From Enterobacter phage phiEap-3, in the sequence record KT321315.1: a DNA stretch of 64,000 nucleotides; one strand, written 5' to 3'. Position numbers and translations under genes: made by a program. Of the stretch, positions 22,668 to 62,991 are shown piece by piece (the stretch's first letter is position 1; every line of letters begins with the position of its first letter). The notes beneath the pieces were generated by a model, which had not been told where the DNA came from, searched no databases, and worked only from the letters and a program-made list of their open reading frames with translations.

Positions 22668-22669
22668 TA

Positions 22670-22720
22670 AAAAGCCCTTGACTCCGGTCGGGGGCTTTGT
22701 TATATTGCATATCGAAACGT
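22670..22720 (+). repeat. PeSL-like cassette copy a (terminator hairpin, TATATT box, CATATCGAAACG leader)
   Basis: AAAAGCCCTTGACTCCGGTCGGGGGCTTT hairpin, then TATATTGCATATCGAAACG, then SD and ATG 22742. Confidence 0.6.
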
Positions 22721-22741
22721 AAATCACTGAGAGAATATATT

Positions 22742-23311
22742 ATGACTAGTAGTTATCAGAAACACAAAACCCTTATGGCAAACCTGTCCGGTAAACATAT
22801 CGACGAAGTAAAATCCCTGCTGACAGTAACCGAAGGCTCCCGTTTTGACACAAATCACATTATCAAACCTTCTGTGAAGAAAGTACTGAAAGTGATTTAC
22901 CGACATCCGGTGTATCAGTGCGTTCATATCATGAACAGCAACGCATTTATTTTCGTATATAACGAATCCGATGATACGTGTGTTGGTATTTTCCGAAAAC
23001 CTAACTTTGAATGCATGAGCGAAGCGGCTGTTGCAACCCCTATCGTTGAAGAATATCCGGATTATGTTCAACGCAACATGCGTTATGTGCAATCCCGACT
23101 TGATTATGCACACGATTTCAATTCTGACGCGGTAGAAGCGCTGGCGGATATCCTTTGCAAAAACCAGAAAGATCGTCAAATGACAAAATATCTGACAGAT
23201 CCAACACCGTCAACAATCCGAATTTCTGTTGAAGTTCCGTTTGAAAATCATTTCATGGCGGTTGAAGCGCTTGCTAAACTTGGTTTAGAAGTGAAAACAG
23301 AAGCCGTTTAA
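22742..23311 (+). CDS. hypothetical protein
   Basis: ORF; the track start 22697 reads through the cassette. Confidence 0.5.
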   Translation: MTSSYQKHKTLMANLSGKHIDEVKSLLTVTEGSRFDTNHIIKPSVKKVLKVIYRHPVYQCVHIMNSNAFIFVYNESDDTCVGIFRKPNFECMSEAAVATPIVEEYPDYVQRNMRYVQSRLDYAHDFNSDAVEALADILCKNQKDRQMTKYLTDPTPSTIRISVEVPFENHFMAVEALAKLGLEVKTEAV

Positions 23312-23386
23312 TAGCACTTTTTGTTAAAGAAGCCTCTTGCAATGCAGGGGGCTTTTTTGTATAGTGTGTTCATCGAAACGAAACAC
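23312..23386 (+). repeat. PeSL-like cassette copy b
   Basis: TAGCACTTTTTG, a terminator hairpin, TATAGT, then GTGTTCATCGAAACGAAACAC. Confidence 0.65.
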
Positions 23387-23399
23387 GGAGATAAACAAA

Positions 23400-23603
23400 A
23401 TGGCTCACATGATGAAGAAAGCAGAATTCCTTAACCTGGTTAAAGATTGCGGATTCGCTCACTTGAAAACTTTTCGTGGTAGTGTTTACCTCTATGACCG
23501 TGAAATCCAGGTTGCAGAAGTCTATTGCGCTTCTAACATGCAAGAATCTGGCATTATCTCTGCAATGAACCAATCAATCAAATACCGTAAATGGATGGGC
23601 TGA
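23400..23603 (+). CDS. hypothetical protein
   Basis: ATG 23400 downstream of the cassette. Confidence 0.45.
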   Translation: MAHMMKKAEFLNLVKDCGFAHLKTFRGSVYLYDREIQVAEVYCASNMQESGIISAMNQSIKYRKWMG

Positions 23604-23605
23604 TT

Positions 23606-23782
23606 ATGAAAGTTAACGTTTCTTATGAATCTCGCGTTAATGGCGCACAGTGGCGGAAGCTGGATAACGGGCAAGTAGAAAGGCGTTTACCTGGTTCCGA
23701 TGAATGGACACTTGCGGCAGTGTTGGAAACCGAAATCGATCTGGCAACAAAAGACGGCATTTTGTTTGAGGTGAAGAAATGA
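23606..23782 (+). CDS. hypothetical 58-aa protein
   Basis: Internal ATG of the track ORF 23591. Confidence 0.4.
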   Translation: MKVNVSYESRVNGAQWRKLDNGQVERRLPGSDEWTLAAVLETEIDLATKDGILFEVKK

Positions 23783-23943
23783 TCACACTCAGTGATTATC
23801 TTCTGTTTACTGCTTTTTGGGTGGCGTCGATATTCATAACTGTTTTGATTTACAACAAACGTGATGATTTTGGGTTGTTATTATTCATTCACGGGCTTCC
23901 TCTTTCTATGTGGATCGTGATGACTGCTGAAATTCTCCATTAA
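23779..23943 (+). CDS. hypothetical small membrane protein (54 aa, 2 TM)
   Basis: ATGA-coupled ORF below the track cutoff; hydrophobic. Confidence 0.35.
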   Translation: MITLSDYLLFTAFWVASIFITVLIYNKRDDFGLLLFIHGLPLSMWIVMTAEILH

Positions 23944-24007
23944 TAGCACTTTTTGCTAAAACTATCCTGTTCTTGTTTGGTATAGTGTGTTCATCGAAAC
24001 GAAACAG
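23944..24007 (+). repeat. PeSL-like cassette copy c
   Basis: TAGCACTTTTTGCTAAAAC...TGGTATAGT, then GTGTTCATCGAAACGAAACAG. Confidence 0.65.
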
Positions 24008-24025
24008 ACAAAAGGAACTACGAAA

Positions 24026-24289
24026 ATGGCTAGAACAATCAAAGATTTCCACGATGACCAGATTATCTCTAATGCAATGGGTGGACGCATGATCCTGTTG
24101 ATGGACAGTGACGGTGATATCGTACTGGTTGTTGAAAACGTAGTTCACTACAGTAACCGTAGTCTGGAAGGGATGTTTAACTGGTTGATGCGCCAGCATA
24201 GCGCGGAGAAAAGCAGTCTCCCAGCGGCATGTAAAGCCCACGCTAAAAACCTGGTAATTATCACTAAGTTAAGAATCAGATCTTACTAA
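24026..24289 (+). CDS. hypothetical protein
   Basis: ATG 24026 after AAAGGAA SD. Confidence 0.45.
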   Translation: MARTIKDFHDDQIISNAMGGRMILLMDSDGDIVLVVENVVHYSNRSLEGMFNWLMRQHSAEKSSLPAACKAHAKNLVIITKLRIRSY

Positions 24290-24295
24290 AAAGTT

Positions 24296-24313
24296 GCCCC
24301 TTCGGGGGCTTTT
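24296..24313 (+). terminator. UUCG-tetraloop hairpin terminator (identical to the 9640 copy)
   Basis: GCCCCTTCGGGGGCTTTT. Confidence 0.55.
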
Positions 24314-24336
24314 AACCCCAACAAAAGGAACATCAC

Positions 24337-24627: not shown

Positions 24628-24638
24628 GGAGATTTATC

Positions 24639-24893
24639 ATGAATTTCAATAAAAACAACAAAGCGATCAGCGAAACAATCACCAACAAGAAACACGCTAT
24701 CTTTATCACAAAATACTGTGAAGGTGTTACTCTGCTGTATCGTCGATATGCTGTTATTGAACTATCCCCATGTATCTATAAAACCTATAAAGAAAACAAT
24801 GGATACTGGGAACGTTGTGATGATCTGGTTAGTTTTCTTATGTGGAACGGTGAGTTTCAAGGATATGACGATATCACTCCGTTGATAAAATAG
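24639..24893 (+). CDS. hypothetical protein
   Basis: ATG after AAGGAG SD. Confidence 0.45.
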   Translation: MNFNKNNKAISETITNKKHAIFITKYCEGVTLLYRRYAVIELSPCIYKTYKENNGYWERCDDLVSFLMWNGEFQGYDDITPLIK

Positions 24894-24950
24894 CACTTTT
24901 TGCTAAAACATTAACGATGTCATTTGGTATAGTATGTTCATCGAAACAAA
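24891..24950 (+). repeat. PeSL-like cassette copy d
   Basis: TAGCACTTTTTGCTAAAAC...TGGTATAGT, then ATGTTCATCGAAACAAAGGAG. Confidence 0.6.
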
Positions 24951-24961
24951 GGAGACTAACC

Positions 24962-25261
24962 ATGAAAAACTTATTCACTGTGCCAGCATGGATTGACCAC
25001 AAAGGCGATTACGATTTTATCAACTTCTTTGAGGTTATGGCTTTACTGAATATTGAAAATCAGTGGGTTCGTATGACAGCCAATGATCAGCGTAAACTGT
25101 TCGGTGTTACCCTGTTTGGCAAAAAGCAATTCATGGTTAAATCTTCTGGTGAAGTAATGGTTTGTTGGTCTACTTGCTTCGGAACTGATTCTGAAATCGT
25201 TACTGTCAATCGTGATAATTTGAAAGAAGCAATCAACGACAAAAAGGCGCTTGTATTATGA
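24962..25261 (+). CDS. hypothetical protein
   Basis: ATG 24962. Confidence 0.45.
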   Translation: MKNLFTVPAWIDHKGDYDFINFFEVMALLNIENQWVRMTANDQRKLFGVTLFGKKQFMVKSSGEVMVCWSTCFGTDSEIVTVNRDNLKEAINDKKALVL

Positions 25262-25551
25262 GTAAGGGTACAATGGAAATTAGCGAAGAAGAAGTTAAAG
25301 AACGGTTATCAGTAGCAAGGAGATTCCTTGAATCTATCGATCCGGATAAACTTGGAAAATGCCCCGATACTATTTGCCTTAATTGTGGGCGTTCTGTTCT
25401 TGTTGGTAAGTGTTGCGATAATCCAAATATCGTTGTGATGGAAAAGGAACAAGTATCCCCCGAAACATGGGATCAGATCCAGGAAATCATTAAAAATCCG
25501 CCAGCGCCAACTAAAAAATTACGTGAATTGATGACAAGGAAAATGAAATGA
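25258..25551 (+). CDS. hypothetical zinc-ribbon protein (CxxC...CC)
   Basis: CPDTICLNCG...GKCCDNP cysteine cluster. Confidence 0.45.
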   Translation: MSKGTMEISEEEVKERLSVARRFLESIDPDKLGKCPDTICLNCGRSVLVGKCCDNPNIVVMEKEQVSPETWDQIQEIIKNPPAPTKKLRELMTRKMK

Positions 25552-27031: not shown

Positions 27032-27100
27032 AAAAATCCCTCCTAATATATCCTATTTACTAAATAGTAAATAATGACCCAGGTTCAATTTGAGGCAATA

Positions 27101-33870: not shown

Positions 33871-34167
33871 TTATTTCAGTTTCTTTCCGGTTTTGAGTTC
33901 ATATTCTAACTCACGAACTTTGATTCGTAAAGTCATTAAACATACCTGGTTCTGACTGTAAAGGTACTGGGTGATAACTTTGGTTTTCAACTTCTCATCG
34001 ACTTTGGAATCTTTGAGCCAATCAGACATCATCTGATACGTTGGGAGGTGTTCGCACTTCTCATCGTCTGACATCGCATCATACGTTGCTTTGTCCATCG
34101 GAGGCGGTTCCTCGAACGCGAGAGCGGGGGTTGCGAGAAGACTAAGTGCAAGTAGTAGATATTTCAT
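33871..34167 (-). CDS. secreted/periplasmic small protein (signal peptide)
   Basis: MKYLLLALSLLATPALA signal sequence; start at the internal ATG after the cassette. Confidence 0.5.
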   Translation of the reverse strand: MKYLLLALSLLATPALAFEEPPPMDKATYDAMSDDEKCEHLPTYQMMSDWLKDSKVDEKLKTKVITQYLYSQNQVCLMTLRIKVRELEYELKTGKKLK

Positions 34168-34181
34168 AATGTATTCCTCAT

Positions 34182-34236
34182 TGTTTTCGATAGAACCAAT
34201 ATAGCAAAAAGCCCCGACCGAAGTCAAGGGCTTTTT
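34182..34236 (-). repeat. terminator-plus-promoter cassette copy k
   Basis: Minus strand reads AAAAAGCCCTTGACTTCGGTCGGGGCTTTTTGCTATATTGGTTCTATCGAAAACAATGAGGAATACATTATG. Confidence 0.6.
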
Positions 34237-34238
34237 CA

Positions 34239-34523
34239 TCAATGCAAGAAAGATTTCACGTACTGTTCGATCTTTTCACGACATGTATCAACTGAGGTAC
34301 TTTCCGCAATTACGGCATGACATAACGCCTCACCGCCGACCCAGAAACTCATCATGTACTGAATATCACGACCTTCCATTTCTTTTTGATGCGCTTTGAT
34401 TCGATCGAAAGCGTTTTCGATTGTTTCAGTAGCAGTAAGCATTTCGGATTCCCCGTCAACCTCCGCCAGTTCCCCATCGATCATTTCGCTTTCGACTTCT
34501 TCCCAGTATACTATCGTTATCAT
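34239..34523 (-). CDS. hypothetical acidic protein
   Basis: ORF. Confidence 0.45.
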   Translation of the reverse strand: MITIVYWEEVESEMIDGELAEVDGESEMLTATETIENAFDRIKAHQKEMEGRDIQYMMSFWVGGEALCHAVIAESTSVDTCREKIEQYVKSFLH

Positions 34524-39862: not shown

Positions 39863-40141
39863 TCAATGTCCGAACACACCACGAATAGACTCTGCGAATG
39901 CATACAGTTCAGGATTTTTAGCTTTCACTGTTTCGATTTGCTCCAGAATGTAATCTGGTTTGTATTTCGCACCGAACCAGCAGTAAGAGAAAGAGCGATC
40001 CCACATGAACACGTTATAGTATTCACCGTTGCGAACTTCAACCATCACATAACCAGGATTAGAACCCAGCGGATAATCTTTCAGAAGATTGAATTTCGCG
40101 CCAGCACCAGTACATCCGTTAAACAGGTCATTAAAAGTCAT
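39863..40141 (-). CDS. hypothetical protein
   Basis: ORF. Confidence 0.45.
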   Translation of the reverse strand: MTFNDLFNGCTGAGAKFNLLKDYPLGSNPGYVMVEVRNGEYYNVFMWDRSFSYCWFGAKYKPDYILEQIETVKAKNPELYAFAESIRGVFGH

Positions 40142-40199
40142 GGTATGTTCCTTTTGTCAGTTTCGTTTCAACAAGGTCACTATACTATTCTTCTTTAGC

Positions 40200-41111
40200 C
40201 TATGCAAGCGCTTTTTTGATTTGTTTTGCAATTGCTTCGATCACCGGAACAGATACAGAGTTACCCGCTTGTTTGTACGCCTGTGTTTTGCTCTTATGCA
40301 TCTTGAATGAATCCGGAAATCCTTGCAACCGGAAACACTCGCGAGGTGATAACATTCGAGGGTTCTTACCTTCCTGCAATACCAGACATTGAACACCATC
40401 CTTATAGTATTGGGCTGTTATCGTCCCAGTACACACAGAATCAACTGTAACGGCCTGATAGCCAAACCCCTTACCGTTTGCCTTGTTTCGTTCTTTACGC
40501 TCTCTAAAGCCCTTCCAGGCACGATCTGATATGGTGTATTGATCATTATCCGGTTCGAGAATGTCGCCTACCCTTGTTGGGGTACGTGGAGGAATAGGAA
40601 AACTAAAGAACACCGGATCGCGAAAGCAGACAATAAACACACGCTCTCTTCGTTGAGGCAATCCAAAATCTTTTGTATTCATTACCTGATAATGGATATC
40701 GTATCCTTCGTCCTGTAACAGCCTGTAGATGGTTTTAAACGTGTTTCCCTTGTCATGAGTTAATAGCTGGGGAACATTCTCAAAGAACAGCACAGAGGGC
40801 TTTTTAGCCCGTATAATGCGGAGTATTTCAAAGATGATAGTACCGCGAGGATCTAACATGCCCTGTTTTAACCCTGCTTTACTAAACGCCTGACAAGGAA
40901 ACCCCGCCAACAGGATATCGTGATCAGGCACATCGTTTTCATCAATGGCGAATATATCACCCTGAATATTTTCATCGCCCCAGTTATCAGCATATGTTTG
41001 TTGTGCATGTTTATCGATTTCAGACGTTAAAAGGCATTCGACCCCGCCGAATGCCTTATCGAAACCGAGCCTCACGCCACCAACACCAGCGCAAAGGTCA
41101 ATTATTTTCAT
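40200..41111 (-). CDS. DNA (cytosine-5)-methyltransferase
   Basis: Motif I DLCAGVGG, motif IV GFPCQAFS, motif VI FFENVPQL, QRRERV; 303 aa. Confidence 0.85.
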   Translation of the reverse strand: MKIIDLCAGVGGVRLGFDKAFGGVECLLTSEIDKHAQQTYADNWGDENIQGDIFAIDENDVPDHDILLAGFPCQAFSKAGLKQGMLDPRGTIIFEILRIIRAKKPSVLFFENVPQLLTHDKGNTFKTIYRLLQDEGYDIHYQVMNTKDFGLPQRRERVFIVCFRDPVFFSFPIPPRTPTRVGDILEPDNDQYTISDRAWKGFRERKERNKANGKGFGYQAVTVDSVCTGTITAQYYKDGVQCLVLQEGKNPRMLSPRECFRLQGFPDSFKMHKSKTQAYKQAGNSVSVPVIEAIAKQIKKALA

Positions 41112-41613: not shown

Positions 41614-42617
41614 TTGTAATACCTCACAACATGTTCAGAATACACACGTTCAATGAAATCATTCCAGAAATCGCGATCAACTTCTTTCGGATAACCAGAT
41701 ACAGCCGCCAGCTTTTCAACTTCACACATCGTTGATTCTAGCGCCTCTTGTACGGTTGCGAAAGGAACACCGCCAGCTTTAACCATTTTCAAAAATGCGC
41801 TGTCCGGAAGAGGATACACAATATCACCTTCTTTGAAAATCTGGATCAATTGCATACCACCGCGCAAAGCATGAGAAAGAGCTTTCCAGTCGATCCCGTT
41901 GTTGGCTTCTGCTTGCCGTGCGCGTTCCCCGTATTCATCCCAGAGTTTATACACGGATTTCTTCATTTCCGCTACGGTGATCGTAGACTGGAATTTACGC
42001 CCCAGAACTTCATAAAATTCCTGACAACCTGATTTCATTGTTTTGTCTGTAACGAATCGACAAAACTCGTTGGTCGGGAATCGGTTAGAAATCTCACCAA
42101 CTTTGATGCGCTTGCCGTAGTTAGATTCATCCACGTTACCCAGCAATGATGTACCATACCAGCAATCAGGAATCGTCTGTAACACATCGACAACTTCACG
42201 CAGTGCAGCCAGGCGAGAGCCTTTAACGCCATACTTCGCCGCTTGCTTACGAACATAACCAAACAGGCCAGTGAGTTCCGTAGTGTAGAAGCGTGAACGG
42301 TTAGCGCGGAGATATTGCCAGATATCAGAGTTAGCGATCAGTTTGCTATCATCTGCATGAAGCATATCAATCGCCACGGTGTCACCATCACATGCGAGGC
42401 TGATAAACTTTTGCAGACTGTAAATCTGACGATCTACGTCATTAACACCGTTCTTTGAGTTTTTATCGCCAGTTGATGTATCAATAGACTTCTTCGCAGT
42501 GCCTAACAGGATTTCGCGAGGATGAGGGAGATAGATCCCTTTGTAGTCTTTATCGCTTGTTGGTGTTTCCAGTCCGTACAGGTGAGAACCGAATACGGTT
42601 TCCATAATCATTTTCAT
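41610..42617 (-). CDS. pol-beta superfamily nucleotidyltransferase (Cid1/OAS/CD-NTase-like GS...D.D motif)
   Basis: VFGSHLYGLETPTSDKDYKGIY matches hG[GS]x9-13[DE]h[DE]h; a further acidic pair (AIDMLHADD) lies downstream; 335 aa. Confidence 0.6.
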   Translation of the reverse strand: MKMIMETVFGSHLYGLETPTSDKDYKGIYLPHPREILLGTAKKSIDTSTGDKNSKNGVNDVDRQIYSLQKFISLACDGDTVAIDMLHADDSKLIANSDIWQYLRANRSRFYTTELTGLFGYVRKQAAKYGVKGSRLAALREVVDVLQTIPDCWYGTSLLGNVDESNYGKRIKVGEISNRFPTNEFCRFVTDKTMKSGCQEFYEVLGRKFQSTITVAEMKKSVYKLWDEYGERARQAEANNGIDWKALSHALRGGMQLIQIFKEGDIVYPLPDSAFLKMVKAGGVPFATVQEALESTMCEVEKLAAVSGYPKEVDRDFWNDFIERVYSEHVVRYYK

Positions 42618-42994: not shown

Positions 42995-43218
42995 TTACGT
43001 CTCCAGCAATTAGTTTTTTCACAGTAATGAACGGGAACAGGCACACCCAACGTTTCTTTACTGCTTCTGTTGTATGTTATCACAACGAATCGGTTTTCGC
43101 CACCCCTAACACACTCCAGATCCAAAATCTCGCGGGTTCCCTTCGTGTTAATGTCTGCAACATAATATTCTTCGTTGTTGACAATCACTATATCCGACAT
43201 GATCAAGCGAGGTTTCAT
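42991..43218 (-). CDS. hypothetical protein
   Basis: ORF. Confidence 0.4.
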   Translation of the reverse strand: MKPRLIMSDIVIVNNEEYYVADINTKGTREILDLECVRGGENRFVVITYNRSSKETLGVPVPVHYCEKTNCWRRK

Positions 43219-43826: not shown

Positions 43827-44092
43827 TTCCTCACAGTTTCAAATTCTTCATCAGATTTCCAATACACGTTAAAATTACGACAATCATGTTCGGCTGTCAA
43901 CGTATATTTTTCATTTGTTTTCTCATCGGTGATAACCATAGTTTCATTATCGATTGAGTTAACACCATAAACGAAAACATTCTCACCGCGTTTGTTTAAA
44001 AACGCATCACCCTTTTCAATCAACTGCCAACAGGCAACAGGCAACCCACCTGGACAAATCGGACGGGTAACAAGACAATAGGGATGTTTCAT
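43823..44092 (-). CDS. hypothetical Cys-rich protein
   Basis: Internal ATG after the cassette. Confidence 0.4.
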   Translation of the reverse strand: MKHPYCLVTRPICPGGLPVACWQLIEKGDAFLNKRGENVFVYGVNSIDNETMVITDEKTNEKYTLTAEHDCRNFNVYWKSDEEFETVRK

Positions 44093-44148
44093 AATAAGCC
44101 TCTTTTGTTTCTGTAGGCCCAATATAGCAAAAGCCCCTGACCTAAGTC
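44093..44148 (-). repeat. terminator-plus-promoter cassette copy l
   Basis: Minus strand reads CAAAGCCCTTGACTTAGGTCAGGGGCTTTTGCTATATTGGGCCTACAGAAACAAAAGAGGCTTATTATG. Confidence 0.55.
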
Positions 44149-44160
44149 AAGGGCTTTGTT

Positions 44161-45231
44161 TTAAATTCCGGTAAATGCTACGATGATTTGATAATGATCA
44201 TCGAAGAATAGATCCCGCATCGCGATCACTTCGTGCATCGGTAGCCAGAACGCGTCTGCTGCATCATCAGAGCCGCCCATAATACGAGGCAATGAACCAT
44301 CGTTATTAGGTTCGAGCTTGATATATTGTGCTACAGTCGGTTTTGAGAAGTACACCGAACGTTTCGGATGATCGAACAGCATCGAATTACGGATAGAACC
44401 ACGAATAACCTTTTCTGGTACTTTAATTCGTACTTCTTCCAGCAATTCACGGATCGCACAATCAAGGAACGTTTCGTTACCGTTTTTGTGTCCACCAGGA
44501 AGCGCTAACGCATCTTTACCAGGCGCAAACTTACGACGGATTACTAACACGTGGTTATTACATACGACCACTGAGTCAGCCGTGCAACAGTTCAGAGAAT
44601 CCGGATACGGATATTTTTTGAACTTGTCAATCTCTCGTTGCCAGTGTGCATCTTCATGGGACAAACGCTGGAATTCTTTTGTTTGTGTCCATTCATCGAT
44701 AAAGGAAACCGTAGTGCTAGGCGCATATTTTAACAAATCTTCGTCCCAGCCTTCATGGTGTTCCCAGATAATTTTGCGTAAATTGGTCGAGGACAGATCC
44801 TGATCTCCAACCTTCACAGGTTCAACCGGAATATGATTCCATCCGAATGCTTTAAGCCAGTAAGAATCTTTGTCTTTTTCGTATCCGACGATCGCAATTC
44901 GATCATTTCGAGTTTCATCGATTGCCATACGAACGCGGGATTTCCATTTTTCCTCGTTATAGAGGTAATCTGGAATGTGCGCGAATTTGATTCTGGCTGC
45001 ATCTTCAACATCAAGTTTGCAGATAGACCAGCGAGTGATCATTGCTTGACGCTGTTTAGCGGTCAATGGGTTTAATGTGTTCGGATATGCATAAGCAGAA
45101 CCGATCAGAATGTAAACCGTATTAGCAACAGCAAGGGCTTCCCTTACCATTTTCTCATGACCATAGTGAAAAGGTTGAAAACGTCCAATTACTACAGCTT
45201 TATCATATTTGTGTTTCATAACGTGCTCCAC
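44161..45231 (-). CDS. natV: bifunctional NMN adenylyltransferase / Nudix ADP-ribose pyrophosphatase (NadM-Nudix, NatV-like)
   Basis: N-terminal GRFQPFHYGH (HxGH nucleotidyltransferase motif); C-terminal Nudix box GGHKNGNETFLDCAIRELLEEV. Confidence 0.8.
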   Translation of the reverse strand: MEHVMKHKYDKAVVIGRFQPFHYGHEKMVREALAVANTVYILIGSAYAYPNTLNPLTAKQRQAMITRWSICKLDVEDAARIKFAHIPDYLYNEEKWKSRVRMAIDETRNDRIAIVGYEKDKDSYWLKAFGWNHIPVEPVKVGDQDLSSTNLRKIIWEHHEGWDEDLLKYAPSTTVSFIDEWTQTKEFQRLSHEDAHWQREIDKFKKYPYPDSLNCCTADSVVVCNNHVLVIRRKFAPGKDALALPGGHKNGNETFLDCAIRELLEEVRIKVPEKVIRGSIRNSMLFDHPKRSVYFSKPTVAQYIKLEPNNDGSLPRIMGGSDDAADAFWLPMHEVIAMRDLFFDDHYQIIVAFTGI

Positions 45232-50349: not shown

Positions 50350-50492
50350 TGTACCCATTCCCCGTTTTTGTCAATGTACATGATCCAATCAGCAACCGCC
50401 CAATGGGAAGTATTGCCTTTCGGAGTCGCTACGATGTAGGAACCAGCTTTAAACAGTACGCGTTTAGTTTCGTTCAGGATCAGGTCGCTCAT
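50346..50492 (-). CDS. hypothetical 48-aa protein
   Basis: SD GAGAGGAATACATT ATG; the same leader as the gene at 34167. Confidence 0.35.
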   Translation of the reverse strand: MSDLILNETKRVLFKAGSYIVATPKGNTSHWAVADWIMYIDKNGEWVQ

Positions 50493-50506
50493 AATGTATT
50501 CCTCTC

Positions 50507-50558
50507 AATTAGATGCATCTATAATAAAAAAGCCCCAGACCGAAGTCAAGGGCTTTTT
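50507..50558 (-). repeat. terminator-plus-promoter cassette copy m
   Basis: Minus strand reads AAAAAGCCCTTGACTTCGGTCTGGGGCTTTTTTATTATAGATGCATCTAATTGAGAGGAATACATTATG. Confidence 0.55.
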
Positions 50559-50559
50559 G

Positions 50560-51201
50560 TCAAATGATTTGTTTTTCTTCTAACAGCTTCGCGGTTGTAT
50601 TAACCATACGAGCATAATCACGGGCTTCTTTCTTTGTATACTTGAAACCAGCGTTATAGCTCGCCAGCGCCTTTTTCAAGTCGCCTTTGTGGTAATCAAG
50701 CCAGTACTCCAGTTCATAGATCGCATACTTCGATCCACCTTGAAGAGTTTCGAGCTTTTTGATTACTACGCGTTTAGGATATGACTTATCCATTCGTGCG
50801 CTGGCGCTCCTTGCGGTAACTTGCCAGCATCCATAAGCGTGATGGCCTTTTTTACCTTTACCGACATTCTCACATGCGCGAGACTCGATCCAGGCAATAG
50901 CCGCTAAATGATAGCCTAAACGTTTAGCCTTATCTTTTTCTACAGGTTTTGCAGTCTTCAAATCATAGTTGTGTCCAACTCGATAAGCATACTCCAGAAC
51001 CTCTTTCTGCTTCGGTGTGATGTTATCCAAATCCTTGATGTAGGATGGAGAATTTTTGTTTGCCGGAGGCTTTACAGTAGCCTTTTGTAAAGGCAATTGA
51101 TGAGTAGGCAAATCCGCAATGAAATCCCCTAGCGGATCCGTCGCAGCGTTGCCAGAAAAAGAGCACAAGAAAATGCTGGCAGCAATAATAATTTTCTTCA
51201 T
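50560..51201 (-). CDS. soluble lytic transglycosylase-like (SLT domain) protein with signal peptide
   Basis: IAWIESR...GCWQV...YNAG SLT motifs; N-terminal signal peptide from ATG 51201. Confidence 0.7.
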   Translation of the reverse strand: MKKIIIAASIFLCSFSGNAATDPLGDFIADLPTHQLPLQKATVKPPANKNSPSYIKDLDNITPKQKEVLEYAYRVGHNYDLKTAKPVEKDKAKRLGYHLAAIAWIESRACENVGKGKKGHHAYGCWQVTARSASARMDKSYPKRVVIKKLETLQGGSKYAIYELEYWLDYHKGDLKKALASYNAGFKYTKKEARDYARMVNTTAKLLEEKQII

Positions 51202-52066: not shown

Positions 52067-53410
52067 TTAGAAATTGTCTTCGACAAACGCCGCGAGACGG
52101 GAACGATACACTGTATCAAGAATGATATGGCTTGAGTGTTCGTATTCTTTCAGCTTTTCAACAGCCCATACAAACCCGTTGTTTACGGCAGTGTTTCGAG
52201 GGTTATCGATCTGCTTAATGTTCCCGCATAGTATCAGAAGTGTGTTCTCTCCGCAACGAGAAATGATAGATTTAATTTCGTGGTTGCTAAGGTTTTGACA
52301 TTCATCAACAATTAGCACAGAACCTTTGCCCGGATCCGGATGTCCGATACTGCGACCACGGAAGTAATACAGGCTAGGGAATTGCACCACCCCTTTTTCA
52401 ATCAAACCTTCAATGTATTTTTCAGATTCCGGATTATCCTTAAACAGAATATTCAGGCTAGTAATACAAGGTTCGATAGAAGGCCGGAGTTTTTCGCCCA
52501 ATGTACCAGGAAGGAAGCCAATTTCACTTGATAACGGGCTATCTGACTTCACATACATCAAGTTAGCGTAATGTCCACTATTAACCAGGTGCATAGCACC
52601 GGAAACAGCAAGCATTGTTTTACCAGAACCAGCGCCGCCCATAATGGTAGCAACATCGATTTCATTGCTCATAATGGATTCAACGAAAGCCGCTTGCAGA
52701 GAATCACGGGGCTGAATAGCTTTCATGAGTTTGCGTTTCATAGCCTGTTCGTGCTTAACAGGTAAGACATTCAAGCAAATCTCATCAGCAGTCACCACAC
52801 GCCCGACTAACTCACCATTTGAGGTAATGTACTGGTTAGGATAAAAATCTTCGTCAGGAAGCGAACTGTAAGTGATTTGGGCTACATTATCCGTATATCC
52901 CAACACTTCTACGGTATCCCAGAAATCAGGGATCTCTACATAACCGGAATACAACACATCGCTATCTTTTAACGTATCGTCGCCAGTATACTGTTCTACC
53001 TTACACCCACGGGACATTGCGATCAGCAACATCATAATATCGCGAGTAACTAAGGTTGCATCCTGTTGCATACAAGTTTCAATGATTCGTTCGTCTTGCT
53101 TGTCAAGAGCAAACGTTTTGTTTCCGACATAATCAACCACTTTAAGGGTGATAGTGTCAGACAGTGCTGGGTTTGTCAGGTTTAAAGGAATACCTGATTT
53201 CGTAATCGCATCATATGACTGACCGAAAATAACTTTTGACAGAAGCCGGATCGCCAATCGTGCTTCGTGCGCTGTTCGTTCTTTCGTTTTCAGGTGATCT
53301 AATTCACCCATAGTAGCAGAGGTAATAATGATTTCTGTACCAGGTTGAGTGAATGAATAGATTGAATAGGGGTTCGAGACTAAAACGTTAGTGTCTAAAA
53401 CATATTTCAT
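52067..53410 (-). CDS. phoH: PIN-domain / PhoH-like ATPase fusion protein
   Basis: N-terminal PIN (MKYVLDTNVL), C-terminal PhoH with Walker A GGAGSGKT. Confidence 0.8.
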   Translation of the reverse strand: MKYVLDTNVLVSNPYSIYSFTQPGTEIIITSATMGELDHLKTKERTAHEARLAIRLLSKVIFGQSYDAITKSGIPLNLTNPALSDTITLKVVDYVGNKTFALDKQDERIIETCMQQDATLVTRDIMMLLIAMSRGCKVEQYTGDDTLKDSDVLYSGYVEIPDFWDTVEVLGYTDNVAQITYSSLPDEDFYPNQYITSNGELVGRVVTADEICLNVLPVKHEQAMKRKLMKAIQPRDSLQAAFVESIMSNEIDVATIMGGAGSGKTMLAVSGAMHLVNSGHYANLMYVKSDSPLSSEIGFLPGTLGEKLRPSIEPCITSLNILFKDNPESEKYIEGLIEKGVVQFPSLYYFRGRSIGHPDPGKGSVLIVDECQNLSNHEIKSIISRCGENTLLILCGNIKQIDNPRNTAVNNGFVWAVEKLKEYEHSSHIILDTVYRSRLAAFVEDNF

Positions 53411-53465
53411 AGAAAATTCCTGATTTGATTACGGGGTACGCGGATTCGCACCCCGCGTACTGCAA

Positions 53466-54418: not shown

Positions 54419-54820
54419 TTAATAATCGTAAAGATCACCGAAGCATAATTCAAATTCACGTTTACGTTTCATCTGTTCTTCTTTTCGCTCTTTCATATCA
54501 GGAGGAAGACGGTCTTCATTGACTTCATCAATATAAGCCTGTGCATCCTCTTTTGTTAGAAAGAACGCATGGAAGTTATATCCGTTACGACCATTCATAC
54601 TACGGTCGTCAAGAGAGAATTGAGTGTGACAGTCCCAGTCATCAAACAGGGTGATGCATTTTGCAAACAGCCCGATACCGCGATTCATATAAGGGAAGCC
54701 AGTAACAATCATCTTTCTACCCATTTCCGCCTTTTCGCCGTCCACGCAGAATACTTCATACATGATCGCACCTGGTTTAACATCTTTCTTAACAGCACGT
54801 TTTTCAAAAGCACTTTTCAT
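54419..54820 (-). CDS. hypothetical protein
   Basis: ORF. Confidence 0.45.
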   Translation of the reverse strand: MKSAFEKRAVKKDVKPGAIMYEVFCVDGEKAEMGRKMIVTGFPYMNRGIGLFAKCITLFDDWDCHTQFSLDDRSMNGRNGYNFHAFFLTKEDAQAYIDEVNEDRLPPDMKERKEEQMKRKREFELCFGDLYDY

Positions 54821-54874
54821 AATATATTCCTCTCAATTGGTGTAACTACAGACTACTAGTTTATTTTCTGGATG

Positions 54875-55237: not shown

Positions 55238-55501
55238 TTAGAGTTCACAGCAACGGCACACACCGTATTTTGTAAATGGAGCATCACCGCTAACGTAGGC
55301 CCAGAAATCACATGCTTCTTCGGCAGTATCGAAGATTGCGGCATCATAGAACCCGTGGGCTTCGTTACCGTTCTCATCGATGAAAACCGGAGTCCAGATA
55401 TTAGGATTGAAGCAATCGTCAACAACAACCCAACCTTCTTTAGCTTTCATTGCTTCTTTGTTGACTTCGATGTGAGCTAAGATTTCGTTCATGATGTCCA
55501 T
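55238..55501 (-). CDS. hypothetical protein (C-terminal CRCC)
   Basis: ORF downstream of cassette e. Confidence 0.45.
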   Translation of the reverse strand: MDIMNEILAHIEVNKEAMKAKEGWVVVDDCFNPNIWTPVFIDENGNEAHGFYDAAIFDTAEEACDFWAYVSGDAPFTKYGVCRCCEL

Positions 55502-55514
55502 TTTTCTCTCCTAA

Positions 55515-55545
55515 AGTGTGTTTCGTTTCGACAGGGCTATAGTCT
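55515..55545 (-). repeat. PeSL-like cassette copy e
   Basis: Minus strand reads CTATAGCCCTGTCGAAACGAAACACAC. Confidence 0.55.
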
Positions 55546-55570
55546 CATAACCCCGTATCTACGTCAACAC

Positions 55571-55831
55571 TTATTTGAAGCGAATTGTGCTATTTTTGAA
55601 AAATAATCCAGAGCACACCGCACCTTCAATTTTCACCCCTGTAGGGCTTTTAGCAACGAACCCTGTTGCGTAGGTGTCTTTCTCATCACATGCAAACCAG
55701 GCGTGGCCTGTGTACGTGATATCGGTAAACCCGTTAGCAGTCAGAATACGTTCGGCTTCTTTCTCATCGGTGCATCCGGATTGTGCTAAAACGACAATAA
55801 CGACTAACACCAAAGCAATAATATATTTCAT
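55571..55831 (-). CDS. small lipoprotein
   Basis: Signal peptide with lipobox LAQSGC. Confidence 0.5.
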   Translation of the reverse strand: MKYIIALVLVVIVVLAQSGCTDEKEAERILTANGFTDITYTGHAWFACDEKDTYATGFVAKSPTGVKIEGAVCSGLFFKNSTIRFK

Positions 55832-56264: not shown

Positions 56265-56275
56265 ATAGTTTCCTT

Positions 56276-56530: not shown

Positions 56531-56543
56531 GAGATCAGTTCCT

Positions 56544-58818: not shown

Positions 58819-58828
58819 AATATAATTC

Positions 58829-59289: not shown

Positions 59290-59296
59290 AACAACC

Positions 59297-59470
59297 TCAC
59301 TTCATTTTAGCAATGTATTTGTCAATACTCATGTAAACACGGGTATACATTACAGCAGCGTGACGGTCGAAGAATCTTTCCCACCATTCCAGCGCTTCCG
59401 CTTTAGAAGGTTTCGCGCCCAGGGCATCATGCATTTTGGCTTTGATTTCTGTTACTGTCAACATGTCCAT
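59297..59470 (-). CDS. hypothetical 57-aa protein
   Basis: ORF below the track cutoff directly downstream of cassette f; coordinates approximate. Confidence 0.3.
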   Translation of the reverse strand: MDMLTVTEIKAKMHDALGAKPSKAEALEWWERFFDRHAAVMYTRVYMSIDKYIAKMK

Positions 59471-59479
59471 TTTTTATCC

Positions 59480-59525
59480 CCGTTTCGTTTCGGTATGGGT
59501 GTAAGATAACATCATCCTACACCCA
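59480..59525 (-). repeat. PeSL-like cassette copy f
   Basis: Minus strand reads GGGTGTAGGATGATGTTATCTTACACCCATACCGAAACGAAACGGGG. Confidence 0.5.
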
Positions 59526-59534
59526 GCGCAAGAG

Positions 59535-59705
59535 TTATTTGTACTCCATGAAGAATTTTATTGCTTCTTCTGGCGTCATACCGTCAGAGAAAAATCCAAA
59601 GAAAGTACAGTGATGGTCGTTGTATGAAATATTCAAAGGAGATAGTAAACTTCGAACATGTTCAGCCCACAAACGATATTTTTTGCTGAATGGTTGATCT
59701 CTCAT
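59535..59705 (-). CDS. hypothetical 56-aa protein
   Basis: ATGA-coupled to the upstream gene; below the track cutoff. Confidence 0.3.
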   Translation of the reverse strand: MRDQPFSKKYRLWAEHVRSLLSPLNISYNDHHCTFFGFFSDGMTPEEAIKFFMEYK

Positions 59706-60045: not shown

Positions 60046-60293
60046 TTTATACGTACCGCGTTAAAAGCCTGGTTCCGGAGATCATACGCTTTTTCAAGCT
60101 GTTCTGTAGTGAACAGAGAACTATCCGAGTTTACCGTGAAACTGCAAATGGTTTTGTTGTCGGCGTTGACTTCTTCAACAACGATATCATAACCCCAAAT
60201 ACCACTTAGTTCACATTTCACGTTACGGTACTTGATATAAACCGCAACAACATCTTCTTTTTTGTAGTTACGGCTTTTGTATAAAATTTCCAT
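60042..60293 (-). CDS. hypothetical protein
   Basis: ORF after cassette g. Confidence 0.45.
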   Translation of the reverse strand: MEILYKSRNYKKEDVVAVYIKYRNVKCELSGIWGYDIVVEEVNADNKTICSFTVNSDSSLFTTEQLEKAYDLRNQAFNAVRIK

Positions 60294-60304
60294 TTCAAAC
60301 TCCC

Positions 60305-60340
60305 TCTGCTTCGTTTCGATGTAGTAACGATACCAAATTC
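60305..60340 (-). repeat. PeSL-like cassette copy g (degenerate)
   Basis: Minus strand reads GGTATCGTTACTACATCGAAACGAAGCAGAGGGAG. Confidence 0.45.
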
Positions 60341-60366
60341 AAAACATGATTGTTTAGCAATTAGTG

Positions 60367-60528
60367 CTATAACACAAACGAACGTCCATCTGTTATAGAT
60401 CGTTCCAGCGATGAAGCGGTTACTGTAAATTCAGGAAACCAGCACCCAAGATTACTTGACCACCACCATACGTTAACACCATCTGTTTTAAATTCGATGT
60501 TCAGGTAAGTATTGAAAATGTGTTTCAT
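60367..60528 (-). CDS. hypothetical Trp-rich small protein
   Basis: ATG after AAGGGG SD; the track start overlaps the upstream gene. Confidence 0.35.
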   Translation of the reverse strand: MKHIFNTYLNIEFKTDGVNVWWWSSNLGCWFPEFTVTASSLERSITDGRSFVL

Positions 60529-60538
60529 GTTGTTCCCC

Positions 60539-60817
60539 TTATGCCATTTTCTTAGCGATTTTCCAGGAAGTTTTGAACGCCGGAACATCTTCAATATCAA
60601 TCCAGAAACCAGATCCGAAACCATCACTATAGCAAGGGCAACCGTCGCAGTAGTTTTCCCAGGTCATAACTTCACCACCAACAGAAGCACCAGTTTCCAT
60701 AGCACGTAATGCATCTTCAACTTTTTCCAGTTTTTCGGCGTTGTCGTCGTAAATGACAAAGTACCATTTACCGTTGTATTCGTTACCCAGTTTGATTGAT
60801 TCGCGAACAAGTTTCAT
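60539..60817 (-). CDS. hypothetical protein
   Basis: ATG 60817 after cassette h; the track extension translates the cassette. Confidence 0.45.
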   Translation of the reverse strand: MKLVRESIKLGNEYNGKWYFVIYDDNAEKLEKVEDALRAMETGASVGGEVMTWENYCDGCPCYSDGFGSGFWIDIEDVPAFKTSWKIAKKMA

Positions 60818-60832
60818 GATGATTTCCTTTTT

Positions 60833-60870
60833 GTCTGTTTCGTTTCTATGTGTGTAATATACCACACCCA
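60833..60870 (-). repeat. PeSL-like cassette copy h
   Basis: Minus strand reads GGTATATTACACACATAGAAACGAAACAGAC. Confidence 0.6.
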
Positions 60871-60886
60871 GATTTTAATGCAACAT

Positions 60887-61219
60887 TTATTTTGCTTCGA
60901 GTTCGATATTTTTCCAGGTTTTCATCGGAACCCCTATCGCATCCCAAAACTTAACATCTTCCGCTGCAATCAGAGTAAAGAAGATCCCAGTTTTCCAGTA
61001 TTTCCCGTTTCTGATTTCGTTTGCGATCTCATTCAACTGGTCACAAAAATGCTCAGTCCAACTAACATCACCATCCCAATGAGAACGTGGGTTGTACAGA
61101 GAAAATATGAAACTATCAATATAAGAAGATTTTCCGGTAGAGACGCCCATCAAAACAGCCAGGATTGTGCGAACTGCATATAAATTCTGAACCTCAACAC
61201 TTCTCGTTTTAATAATCAT
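60887..61219 (-). CDS. hypothetical protein
   Basis: ATG 61219 after cassette i. Confidence 0.45.
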   Translation of the reverse strand: MIIKTRSVEVQNLYAVRTILAVLMGVSTGKSSYIDSFIFSLYNPRSHWDGDVSWTEHFCDQLNEIANEIRNGKYWKTGIFFTLIAAEDVKFWDAIGVPMKTWKNIELEAK

Positions 61220-61231
61220 TTCATAATTCCT

Positions 61232-61290
61232 CTGTTTTGTTTCGATGAATGCAATATAACAAAACCCCTCACCATTGGCAAGGGGTTTTT
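61232..61290 (-). repeat. PeSL-like cassette copy i with terminator hairpin
   Basis: Minus strand reads AAAACCCCTTGCCAATGGTGAGGGGTTTTGTTATATTGCATTCATCGAAACAAAACAGAGG. Confidence 0.6.
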
Positions 61291-61297
61291 GCAAAAA

Positions 61298-61558
61298 TTA
61301 TCGTTTGATTGGGGTATTATCTATAACCCTTTGAATTTCCGAACGTATCGTAGAATACTGGCACAATTCGGTAAGCGCCCGATCCAGGTGCATCATAGCG
61401 TAAGGAAAATCTTTTCCGCATTTGTCACATCGAGCGTATAAATGTAAATGGATGCGTCCGATCCCATCTACCTGACTATATTTCTGGAATATGTAAGGTT
61501 TTGCACCTCGATAGCCAGTAGCTTCATGCTTACACTCTCGTTTTTTGAACCATGACAT
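61298..61558 (-). CDS. hypothetical zinc-ribbon protein
   Basis: CKHE...CDKCGKDF. Confidence 0.4.
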   Translation of the reverse strand: MSWFKKRECKHEATGYRGAKPYIFQKYSQVDGIGRIHLHLYARCDKCGKDFPYAMMHLDRALTELCQYSTIRSEIQRVIDNTPIKR

Positions 61559-62133
61559 TAATAATATCCTTGTACGTTGAAGCGGTCACACAACAATTTT
61601 TTTGTTTGGTTAGTATCGCTTTGGATAGAATGCAACATAGCGCTGAACATGTTTAGGTTATTTTGCATCATTTCCGCGCTCATGAGAACTTCCATACGCG
61701 CACGTAAGCGTTTATTTTCTTCTTCCAACTCAACCATACGGTCATATGCTTTGATGCGCTCTAAGGGCATATCAGGACGCTCTTTGAGTACGCGAGCACG
61801 TTCAACCTCACAAGCATGATTTGCTTTCCAGTGGTTCGATTCCGCTTCAAATTTATTAAGGCGGCGGATCTCTTCAACCAGCTTTTTGATCATGTGTGGA
61901 TCCATCATGTCGATGAATTTCATCAGGCAATTGGATTTTGTTTTGTTGTCAGCACCAGACCAAGACGAATTATACGTAACCGTAAACGTGCGGCCCATTT
62001 CATCAACAACCCCGATCTTGTTATCATCGGTGATTGTAGCCGCCCATTTCTCCCGCATGGCTGTACAGGTTCCGCTGGCGACACTATGCAACTTGTTTAA
62101 TGTTGCATCATCAAATACAATTTCATCACTCAT
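61558..62133 (-). CDS. hypothetical protein with C-terminal coiled coil
   Basis: ORF. Confidence 0.45.
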   Translation of the reverse strand: MSDEIVFDDATLNKLHSVASGTCTAMREKWAATITDDNKIGVVDEMGRTFTVTYNSSWSGADNKTKSNCLMKFIDMMDPHMIKKLVEEIRRLNKFEAESNHWKANHACEVERARVLKERPDMPLERIKAYDRMVELEEENKRLRARMEVLMSAEMMQNNLNMFSAMLHSIQSDTNQTKKLLCDRFNVQGYY

Positions 62134-62140
62134 ATATGCC

Positions 62141-62539
62141 TCACATAGATTTCAAAATACGCAAAAGTGCGTTAGTAAAGATATCAGGAACACAACCACC
62201 AAACAACTTATGATTCATCAGCGCTAATTTCATGCTGTGATTTTCAGTATATCGCCCGTTCTGGATCCCCCAGGCAACGACATTACCAGGTTCATGAATA
62301 ACTAAGTTGGTGAGAGTAACGGTCATGCGCTCTTTATCATTGATAGAGAATGAATAGCAGTAACCGGATCCAATGTCGCCATAAAGGTTAAGGTCTTTCA
62401 ATTTCCCTTGCTCATGCAAGCGTTTCATATGAACTGCACATGCATGATTAATGGTCATTTCGTCATCCCTAGCCCAGTCATCAATACCAGAGGTATAACG
62501 AATATTGAAATAGTTAGTCAGTTCATTTGATACGCTCAT
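62141..62539 (-). CDS. hypothetical protein
   Basis: ATG after AAAGTGAGG SD. Confidence 0.4.
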   Translation of the reverse strand: MSVSNELTNYFNIRYTSGIDDWARDDEMTINHACAVHMKRLHEQGKLKDLNLYGDIGSGYCYSFSINDKERMTVTLTNLVIHEPGNVVAWGIQNGRYTENHSMKLALMNHKLFGGCVPDIFTNALLRILKSM

Positions 62540-62717
62540 TAGAAACCTCACTTTTATAAAATTCTTTACCAGTCCCATTACAGCTACTGCATTTGGGAGA
62601 ACGGTTGCTATCATACCGCCCCGATCCGTTACATGCAACACATTTCCTTAATTTCCAGCCATACACGAACCTCATGTAATGATCGGTTCGTGCGGCCTTG
62701 CGTTCGTGGAAATTCAT
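62523..62717 (-). CDS. small DnaJ-type zinc-finger-like protein (two CxxCxGxG repeats)
   Basis: CVACNGSG and CSSCNGTG. Confidence 0.4.
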   Translation of the reverse strand: MNFHERKAARTDHYMRFVYGWKLRKCVACNGSGRYDSNRSPKCSSCNGTGKEFYKSEVSNERIK

Positions 62718-62914
62718 GCTTTGTAAACCTGAACCAACCACATTTCGATGTTAGGCGCGTAAGTAACGTTTACCTTATGCATTGTGCGGTATTTGTAAGC
62801 GGCTTTGTACGCATCGAGTTCAGTCGGAACACAGAAAGAGAAACCGTTGTCATAGCGTTCTGCGTTAGAAACTTCACAACCAACTACAGCGGCAATATTT
62901 TTGTTCATGTTCAT
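62714..62914 (-). CDS. hypothetical protein
   Basis: ATG 62914 after cassette j. Confidence 0.4.
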   Translation of the reverse strand: MNMNKNIAAVVGCEVSNAERYDNGFSFCVPTELDAYKAAYKYRTMHKVNVTYAPNIEMWLVQVYKA

Positions 62915-62929
62915 GATGTTTTCCTTTCT

Positions 62930-62989
62930 CTGTTTCGTTTCGATGTGTGTAATATAACAAAGCCCCTGCACGAATGCAAGGGCTTTTTT
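62930..62989 (-). repeat. PeSL-like cassette copy j with terminator hairpin
   Basis: Minus strand reads AAAAAAGCCCTTGCATTCGTGCAGGGGCTTTGTTATATTACACACATCGAAACGAAACAGAG. Confidence 0.65.
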
Positions 62990-62991
62990 GA

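Follow-up and report, generated by a model that had tools for sequence, protein, structure and literature searches.

The 64,000-nucleotide stretch of Enterobacter phage phiEap-3 analysed here (sequence record KT321315.1; hereafter the window) contains 14 intergenic cassettes, each placed ahead of a small open reading frame (ORF) and apparently serving as the control unit of an early accessory gene. An earlier note on this DNA had proposed that at least 13 copies of a mobile promoter cassette precede such ORFs on both strands, and the cassettes are indeed real. Their organisation is that of the promoter-early stem-loop (PeSL) cassettes of RB49/phi1, T4/PST and KVP40/nt-1 (Arbiol et al. 2010, PMC2839356; Comeau et al. 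2014, PMC4122927), and we put the probability of the PeSL reading as a whole, with promoter activity predicted, at roughly three in four. The earlier note had overlooked that the -35 hexamer lies within a terminator stem, that the conserved leader begins at the predicted +1, that a subset of cassettes carries a marbox at class II spacing, and that elements of the cassette are shared across phage families. The marbox module and the cross-family distribution are new here.

By nucleotide identity the window is assigned to Slopekvirus, a T4-type Klebsiella phage group. It is 97-99% identical to the Slopekvirus Klebsiella phages of the KP15/KP27/Matisse group, with vB_KpnM_05F as best match, and identity to the RB43 group is ~80%. 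The cassettes occupy two early-gene regions, a plus-strand block at 22.7-25.9 kb after the DNA ligase gene and a minus-strand block at 33-64 kb (Table 1). In every cassette the -10 box, the spacing, the Shine-Dalgarno sequence (SD) and the ATG lie on the coding strand in the correct orientation, and TG at -15/-14 extends the -10 box in 10 of the 14. The upstream stop codon is found at the 5' edge, and the SD and start codon of the small ORF at the 3' edge. Seven cassettes carry a sigma-70-like early promoter made up of TTGACT/TTGCNN, a 16-18 nt spacer and TATAnT.

Downstream of the -10 box follows a conserved leader, AUCGAAACGAAACAG, present in 12 cassettes. Using a 16-nt position weight matrix built from 11 copies, we obtained 12 matches at >=14 bits, training copies included, compared with 0.9 in Markov shuffles; the exact 19-mer with <=3 mismatches gave 4 matches in the window against 0.05 expected. 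All of the matrix matches are on the coding strand, with a -10 box immediately before them and an SD-ATG after them. The gap from the -10 box to the A of ATCGAAAC is 6 nt in 10 of the 14 cassettes, and this A is therefore taken as the predicted +1. The gap is 3-8 nt in the other four, so that the fixed distance claimed previously holds for most copies and not for all. From the predicted +1 to the ATG is 22-33 nt, and all three frames relative to the downstream ORFs occur, as stated in the earlier note. The ten leader positions already reported were all correct (their -10 starts are those of cassettes 1-4 and 9-14 in Table 1), and copies behind the minus-strand -10 boxes starting at 40184 and, more weakly, 44126 can be added to them.

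Seven of the cassettes carry an upstream hairpin, a predicted terminator with a G/C-rich stem of 12-13 bp, a tetraloop-size loop and a T run; the other seven have no such hairpin. The folding energies of the seven range from -16.5 to -20.4 kcal/mol (z -3.6 to -5.6 against shuffles). Changes in the -35 hexamer (TTGACT, TTGCAT, TTGCCA or TTGCAA), which lies in the 5' arm, are matched by changes in the 3' arm; when 19 variants from this phage and its relatives are aligned, four of the six consensus pairs prove to be kept by compensatory double changes. Given that the hexamer lies inside the terminator stem, one 45-nt element is predicted both to end the upstream transcript and to start the next one. 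These are the seven hairpin copies listed in the earlier note, although the positions it gave for the minus-strand copies at 34182, 44093 and 50507 are those of the leader/ATG end and not of the hairpin. Its description of a PeSL-like terminator-promoter architecture also stands, with the stem-loop overlapping the -35 and spacer, variable early regions around the cassettes and small ORFs downstream.

We compared the window with 05F, R4_1, KP5, Matisse, KP27, KMI9 and Prick1 for indel junctions. KP27 is without 60862-61230, the gene between cassettes 13 and 12, and has instead a chimeric cassette in which the hairpin and -10 of window 61300-61253 are joined at TATATT to the discriminator and leader from 60855 onward. 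Three more indels have their junctions in the leader, SD or ATG. A 303-bp gene with its terminator (24019-24321) is missing in 05F, R4_1 and Matisse, and the crossover, ACAAAAGGAAC, is common to the cassette 3 leader and the SD of the next gene. An extra gene of 387 bp follows cassette 8 in 05F, KMI9 and Prick1, with a 19-bp SD-ATG repeat (GAGGAATACATTATGAGCG) at the junction, and a 167-bp indel, by which 05F is missing the gene after cassette 10, has an 8-bp junction repeat (ATGTTGAC). The remaining indels are at plain gene boundaries or concern HNH endonuclease genes. Cassettes make up 5% of the sequence and contain 8 of the 37 junction ends (P=6e-4 against bulk, computed from four relatives). 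Such junctions, the KP27 chimera among them, show that the cassettes take part in modular shuffling. The recombination junctions that the earlier note proposed to look for in related phages are thus present; its idea that cassettes specifically drive shuffling is not borne out, there being no excess of junctions over gene starts in general (P=0.25, from the same relatives).

Several further observations concern these variable sites. A second repeated translation-initiation module, (A)TTGAGAGGAATAyATTATG, occurs in several cassettes (50490-50515, 54820-54850, 34165-34190 and 22725-22744); at 50486-50504 the 19-bp core of this module is where the 387-bp indel crosses over. HNH/homing endonuclease insertions in KP27, KMI9 and Prick1 at window 53402-53465 and 42596-43805 are unrelated to the cassettes. 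The ortholog of the cassette 3 gene (MARTIKDF...) in another RB43/Slopek-type phage (our locus L117, 2040-2130, compared with window 23944-24028) is preceded by a marbox plus hairpin/-35 cassette with the same leader; there the upstream module is swapped, and leader and gene are retained.

The leader, and often the whole cassette, is also found outside the T4-type phages, in T1-like, Vequintavirinae and phi80-type phages. T1-like siphoviruses of Klebsiella and E. coli carry marbox, hairpin, -10 and leader together, and Cronobacter phage CR3 (Vequintavirinae) has the arrangement GGGGTTGACTTCGGTCAACCCC-TTTTGC-TATTCT-N6-ATCGAAACGAAACAGAGAAAAGGAAC. The same 14 nt stand at the start of PL in lambdoid phages of phi80/HK225/HK639 type, ahead of the antiterminator region. 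The 92-residue protein of cassette 12 (60539-60817, minus strand) shares 73% identity with one encoded by Klebsiella siphovirus vB_KpnS_Bubbly_ER22 (our locus L003, 451-732), and the homologous gene there sits behind the same marbox-hairpin-(-10)-leader cassette. A cargo of this similarity behind the same cassette indicates horizontal transfer of cassette plus gene between unrelated phages, here a myovirus and a siphovirus of one host genus. A scan of bacterial genomes for -10 plus leader returned 111 matches against ~70 expected by chance, of which only those in Enterobacterales and Vibrio look real, and it is accordingly of little weight. At phi80 PL (X13065, 260-375), at a second such locus (L044, 6190-6260, minus strand) and in many prophages the transcript start is the identical ATCGAAACGAAACA; two hairpins and a boxA-like TGCTTTTTAACAA follow it, and the operators upstream are highly diverse.

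The repeats could instead be recent paralogous copies of intergenic sequence, with no selected function beyond that of ordinary promoters, and their cross-family matches could be chance or remnants of transfer. In its favour, T1 conserves the leader weakly, junctions are no commoner at cassettes than at other gene starts, and one cassette did move between a myovirus and a siphovirus along with its cargo. Against it, spacer and hairpin sequences vary from copy to copy, with lengths, pairing and spacings preserved. Matches to -10 + N6 + leader number at least 120 among viral loci where roughly ten are expected (a rough estimate with an assumed IMG/VR size), and the genes downstream of the cassettes are mostly unrelated to each other. 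We consider this explanation improbable for the cassettes as a whole.

Some observations nevertheless weigh against the view that the cassettes are control units of PeSL type, the absence of junction enrichment over gene starts being one. Generic sigma-70 and terminator scans of the window gave promoter counts no higher than those of shuffles; what supports the cassettes is the combination of their elements and not the number of hexamers. The -35/-10 matches of cassettes 9 and 10 are poor. In T1 promoters chosen by marbox alone the leader is loosely conserved, with A at +1 in 14 of 16 and weak later positions, and it is absent from cassette 8 and several related hairpin promoters, which carry other leaders. 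For this reason the 15-nt identity within the genome may stem from recent copying and not from a sequence-specific function.

The leader is probably a U-poor, A-rich initial transcribed sequence and 5' untranslated region (UTR) that favours promoter escape and ribosome loading. After the U at +2, a U-free run of 15-26 nt is present in 9 of the 14 cassettes, and RNA beginning at the predicted +1 has a minimum free energy of 0 to -1.2 kcal/mol (z +0.4 to +1.3), as expected of an unstructured sequence. The earlier note had suggested a GTGTT/AACAC stem, or a site for an RNA-binding regulator or processing enzyme. Such a structured or protein-bound leader, co-regulating the cassette genes post-transcriptionally, would be in keeping with its being the most repeated element of the cassette and with the GGAG present in several SDs; in T4-type phages, RegA/RegB-type regulators act on early mRNA leaders. 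The data speak largely the other way. The stem itself occurs in one copy only. Its GTGTT arm, found in two or three copies and replaced elsewhere by ACACAC, TACTAC or GCATTC without compensation, lies upstream of the predicted start. Folding with and without GTGTT gave no stable or conserved structure and nothing better than shuffles. A search of the window against Rfam returned only a tRNA and no leader family, and nothing was returned for five lambdoid loci carrying the leader. In addition, T1-like, Vequintavirinae and phi80-type phages carry the leader yet share no such regulator. We therefore reject the proposed stem and hold a post-transcriptional target to be unlikely. As host factors acting on the leader, CsrA, Hfq, IHF, Cra, CpxR, OmpR and NAD-capping were considered by consensus sequence and none fits; nothing on the leader sequence was found in the open-access literature searched.

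A second type of upstream module is the motif TAGCACTTTTTGCTAAAAC, which is found at 23312, 23944 and 24891, where it contains or adjoins the upstream stop codon, and again on the minus strand at 60383-60353. Four plus-strand copies sharing such a motif had been reported; three are there, and the fourth is instead the minus-strand copy, unlisted at the time. Each of the four copies (23314, 23946, 24893 and 60367) has the motif aaTAGCACTTTTTGCTAAAAC, which fits the published marbox definition gcannwwntgnnaaa (PMC12052159) at 15 of 15 positions, and the window holds six perfect marboxes compared with 1.2 in shuffles. In cassettes 3, 4 and 11 the marbox is in forward orientation and centred at -40 from the predicted +1, with 20 nt from AAA to the -10 box and no recognisable -35 (the best scores 2-4 of 6). 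Class II marbox promoters have this same forward orientation, a marbox at about -41 and no recognisable -35 (PMC10268841, PMC8811837; for orientation and position also PMC12052159). The sequence features of class II MarA/SoxS/Rob/RamA sites, namely consensus match, orientation and position relative to a predicted start, and a missing -35, are accordingly all found in these cassettes. The E. coli micF promoter, a class II promoter of known structure, also has 20 nt from marbox AAA to -10 when read directly from a genome. Cassette 2 does have a real -35, ~6-7 bp downstream of its marbox, and 31 nt lie between the marbox AAA and the -10 box, compared with 32 nt for the forward soxbox of zwf (PMC9638938).

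To examine placement independently of the marbox, 35 non-redundant viral cassettes were retrieved solely by -10 + N6 + leader. They contain forward marboxes at -40/-41 (8) and -51 (3) and one in reverse, where ~0.6 is expected over all positions. Phage T1 (AY216660) has 20 perfect marboxes against 0.67 expected. Fourteen of the 19 analysable ones have a -10 box exactly 20 nt downstream, whereas 6% of controls have one at 19-21 nt; these promoters have G at -14 and A at +1, and the positions conserved among them, ATA-GCAC...TG-Y-T-AAA, are the specified positions of the marbox consensus. The T1 marboxes are mostly intergenic (for example 1453-1510, 2272-2330, 3538-3600 and 4347-4400), and at many of them an inverted repeat such as GGGGTAtcttgcTATAGTTACCCC encloses the -10 box, giving a PeSL-like stem-loop over it. 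A viral scan for marbox plus -10 at a 19-nt gap, one below the dominant 20 nt and hence under-sampling, found marbox promoters with varied A/C-rich leaders and many chance matches in coding sequence. A phage-encoded activator was sought by tblastn with MarA, which matched no Slopekvirus or T1-like record, so the activator would be the host's.

Taken together, these data lead us to regard a functional MarA/SoxS/Rob/RamA site as the likelier identity of the marbox module, and they suggest that part of the phage genes is linked through it to the antibiotic-stress circuitry of the host. We give about even odds to the broader proposal that unrelated lytic enterobacterial phages wire part of their early or accessory expression to host MarA/SoxS/Rob/RamA by means of consensus class II marboxes, which would be carried on a terminator-promoter-leader cassette exchanged horizontally. 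The phages concerned would, at the same odds, be the T1-like Drexlerviridae, with the marbox as main promoter type, and the T4-like phages of Slopekvirus/RB43 type. Two points count against a functional marbox. Of the older 20-mer consensus, AYnGCACnnWnnRYYAAAYn, 19 of 20 positions are matched and position 19 is not. Many genomic marboxes are non-functional and the consensus is degenerate (PMC12052159). A further point, against the cassette reading as a whole, is that six of the sites are labelled 'putative middle promoter; discovered using MEME' in the KP27 GenBank record. No papers tying marboxes to phage promoters were found in the limited open-access literature, which leaves the novelty of the link unproven.

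The same motif can be written as TAGCA-N5-TGCTA, and could then be the palindromic operator of a dimeric protein or a stop-codon RNA hairpin whose likeness to a marbox is coincidental. The outer five bases of one side form an inverted repeat with those of the other, the sequence between them varies (TTTTT, GAATT or TAATT), and the change from TGCTA to TGTTA would give a G-U wobble in RNA. Conservation is, however, asymmetric and extends beyond the palindrome (ATA-GCAC ... TAAA-A/C), the C/T at the variable position is exactly the marbox Y, and both published marbox definitions are matched in a single orientation only. Moreover, the motif occupies two discrete positions that coincide with those of micF and zwf, a placement for which a 5-bp A/U-rich stem has no need. 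The asymmetric, single-orientation conservation at two discrete positions rules against the palindrome, which has little chance of being correct.

Least probable of all is that the sites are phage middle promoters whose TTGCAT/TTGCTA is read by a MotA-like activator with AsiA-remodelled sigma-70, as the KP27 annotation and a superficial likeness of TTTTTGCTAAA to the Mot box wwwTGCTTtA might suggest: the Mot box is centred at ~-30 and lies 11-13 bp from the -10, and MotA is reported only in T4, RB69 and 44RR and not in RB43-type phages (PMC1524935), whereas here 20 nt separate TGCTAAA from the -10, the identical motif and spacing abound in T1, a phage without a MotA/AsiA system, and the hairpin-type sites have an ordinary TTGACT -35 at 17-18 nt.

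Table 1. Positions and components of the 14 cassettes in the window (minus-strand elements are given in their reading direction; +1 sites are predicted)
Cassette	Span	Strand	Upstream elements	-10 box	Leader and +1	ATG	Remarks
1	22668..22744	+	Hairpin 22671-22698 (-20.4 kcal/mol, z -5.3); -35 TTGACT 22678-22683 in 5' arm	TG-extended TATATT 22701-22706	Degenerate leader ATCGAAACG 22711-22719	22742	190-codon ORF after DNA ligase
2	23312..23402	+	Perfect marbox 23314-23328; hairpin 23330-23355; -35 TTGCAA 23337-23342 inside	TATAGT 23360-23365	+1 A 23372 of ATCGAAACGAAACAC	23400	Marbox AAA to -10 zwf-like
3, class II type	23944..24028	+	Perfect marbox 23946-23960; no -35; 20 nt to -10	TG-extended TATAGT 23981-23986	+1 23993 (ATCGAAACGAAACAG)	24026	Leader/SD ACAAAAGGAAC is crossover of 303-bp gene indel vs 05F, R4_1, Matisse
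4, class II type	24891..24964	+	Perfect marbox 24893-24907; 20 nt to -10	TG-extended TATAGT 24928-24933	+1 24940 (ATCGAAACAAAGGAG)	24962	Within 627-bp block 24645-25271, missing in 05F, KP5, Matisse
5	34165..34242	-	Hairpin with -35 TTGACT 34227-34222	TATATT 34203-34198	+1 near 34191 (ATCGAAAACAAUGAGG, degenerate leader)	34167	
6	40139..40215	-	TTGCAT, -35-like hexamer	TATAGT 40184-40179	Leader GUUGAAACGAAACUG	40141	Not in earlier note; KP27 ortholog annotated 'putative middle promoter'
7	44090..44162	-	Hairpin with -35 TTGACT 44150-44145	TATATT 44126-44121	Leader ACAGAAACAAAAGAGG	44092	Flanking replacement vs KP27 and KMI9, junctions 44089 and 44228
8	50490..50562	-	Hairpin with -35 TTGACT 50549-50544	TATTAT 50526-50521	Different leader AUCUAAUUGAGAGGAAUACAUU	50492	19-bp SD-ATG is crossover of 387-bp indel
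9	55499..55572	-	TTGACG 20 nt upstream of -10; weak core	TATAGC 55541-55536	Leader (G)UCGAAACGAAACAC	55501	
10	59468..59535	-	TTGCGC, 17 nt to -10	TG-extended TATCTT 59508-59503	Leader AUACCGAAACGAAACGG	59470	Downstream 57-codon gene missing in 05F; 8-bp crossover ATGTTGAC
11, class II type	60291..60383	-	Perfect marbox 60367-60353; 20 nt to -10	TG-extended TATCGT 60332-60327	+1 60320 (AUCGAAACGAAGCAG)	60293	Variable segment 60322-60539 directly upstream
12	60815..60890	-	TTGCAT, 16 nt to -10	TG-extended TATATT 60861-60856	+1 60849 (AUAGAAACGAAACAG)	60817	Cargo gene 60539-60817; with cassette 13 flanks gene 60887-61219, missing in KP27 (one chimeric cassette there)
13	61217..61292	-	Hairpin 61289-61261; -35 TTGCCA 61281-61276 inside	TATATT 61258-61253	+1 61246 (AUCGAAACAAAACAG)	61219 (true ATG)	Flanks gene 60887-61219 with cassette 12
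14	62912..62990	-	Hairpin 62986-62959; -35 TTGCAT 62979-62974 inside	TATATT 62956-62951	+1 62944 (AUCGAAACGAAACAG)	62914	

These data allow us to propose how the cassettes may work. They would control early accessory genes transcribed by the host RNA polymerase and would be built from interchangeable modules. The upstream module may take three forms. In the first, an intrinsic terminator hairpin would stop the preceding transcript, with the -35 (TTGACT/TTGCAT) in its 5' arm and its U-tract running into the -10 box. In the second, which has no -35, a forward consensus marbox at ~-40 would be bound by a host AraC-family activator, MarA, SoxS or Rob, or RamA in Klebsiella. The third would combine both, the marbox standing ~6-7 bp upstream of the -35 as in zwf. 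A core of TG-extended -10 and 6-nt discriminator would be followed by a downstream module in which transcription starts at the A of AUCGAAACGAAACAG and continues through a U-free, A-rich, unstructured 5' UTR to the SD and then the ATG, which lies 22-33 nt beyond +1. Repetition of the modules would allow genes to be inserted, deleted or swapped by homologous or microhomology recombination at the -10, in the leader/SD or at the start codon, with a working cassette left behind. Identical modules would circulate in this way among unrelated enterobacterial phages.

With cassettes of PeSL type, T4-type phages can acquire, lose and exchange small accessory genes and still express them, and the cassettes described here, with exact junctions, extend that picture to the therapeutically used KP15/KP27 group. 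The leader shared across families would be a ready-made, compact and apparently portable expression module, its activity being predicted. If the marbox is functional, it would provide the first direct link of phage promoter recognition to the MarA/SoxS/Rob/RamA regulon, which is a central route to multidrug resistance, and would account for the scarcity of canonical -35 boxes in T1-type phages. Phage expression would then be tied to host state, for example in clinical Klebsiella and E. coli overexpressing RamA or MarA, or under bile, salicylate or oxidative stress. Resistant mar/ram mutants or stressed cells would express these phage genes differently, which would bear on phage-antibiotic combinations.

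Elsewhere in the window, sigma-70-like promoters are present on the plus strand at 3273-3360 (TTGACC/TAAAGT) and 5048-5125 (TTGACT/TATAAT). In both, a terminator-like hairpin and T run follow the promoter, in the leader before the SD-ATG, an attenuator-like arrangement unlike that of the cassettes. A tRNA gene lies upstream of the studied region at 16303-16376 on the plus strand (Rfam RF00005, 54.6 bits).

Among known systems the cassettes most resemble PeSLs. Both have a sigma-70-type early promoter with a G/C-rich stem-loop overlapping the -35 and spacer, a stop codon at the 5' edge and an SD and ATG at the 3' edge; both precede small accessory ORFs in variable regions, and in both a close relative has a single chimeric cassette in place of a gene and the two cassettes around it. 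Unlike those in the PeSL papers found, the cassettes described here come from a different genus, Slopekvirus, and their promoter and terminator activities are predicted. They have a conserved transcribed leader, a subset has a marbox replacing the -35, and their crossovers fall in the -10, leader/SD and start codon, whereas those of PeSLs fall in the A/T-rich upstream region. The marbox cassettes share with micF, a class II promoter of E. coli and Klebsiella, the forward consensus box at ~-40, the 20 nt to the -10 and the lack of a -35, and cassette 2 shares with zwf a forward box just upstream of a real -35. They differ from both in belonging to lytic phage genomes and not to the host regulon, with a predicted dependence on the activator, and from most host marboxes in being much closer to consensus. 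Like the morons of temperate phages, they equip each small accessory gene with a promoter and terminator of its own, and one such gene passed with its cassette between unrelated phages of one host genus; unlike morons, they belong to lytic phages and constitute a shared repeated module instead of a private promoter for each gene.

The strong early promoters T7 A1 (AUCGAGAGGGACACGG) and T7 A3 (AUGAAACGACAGUG) have U-poor initial transcribed sequences. The cassette transcripts are likewise predicted to start at the A of CAUC/CAUG and continue into a U-free stretch rich in purines and C; they are set apart from the T7 promoters by the repetition of one specific 14-15-mer within the genome and by its sharing between phage families.

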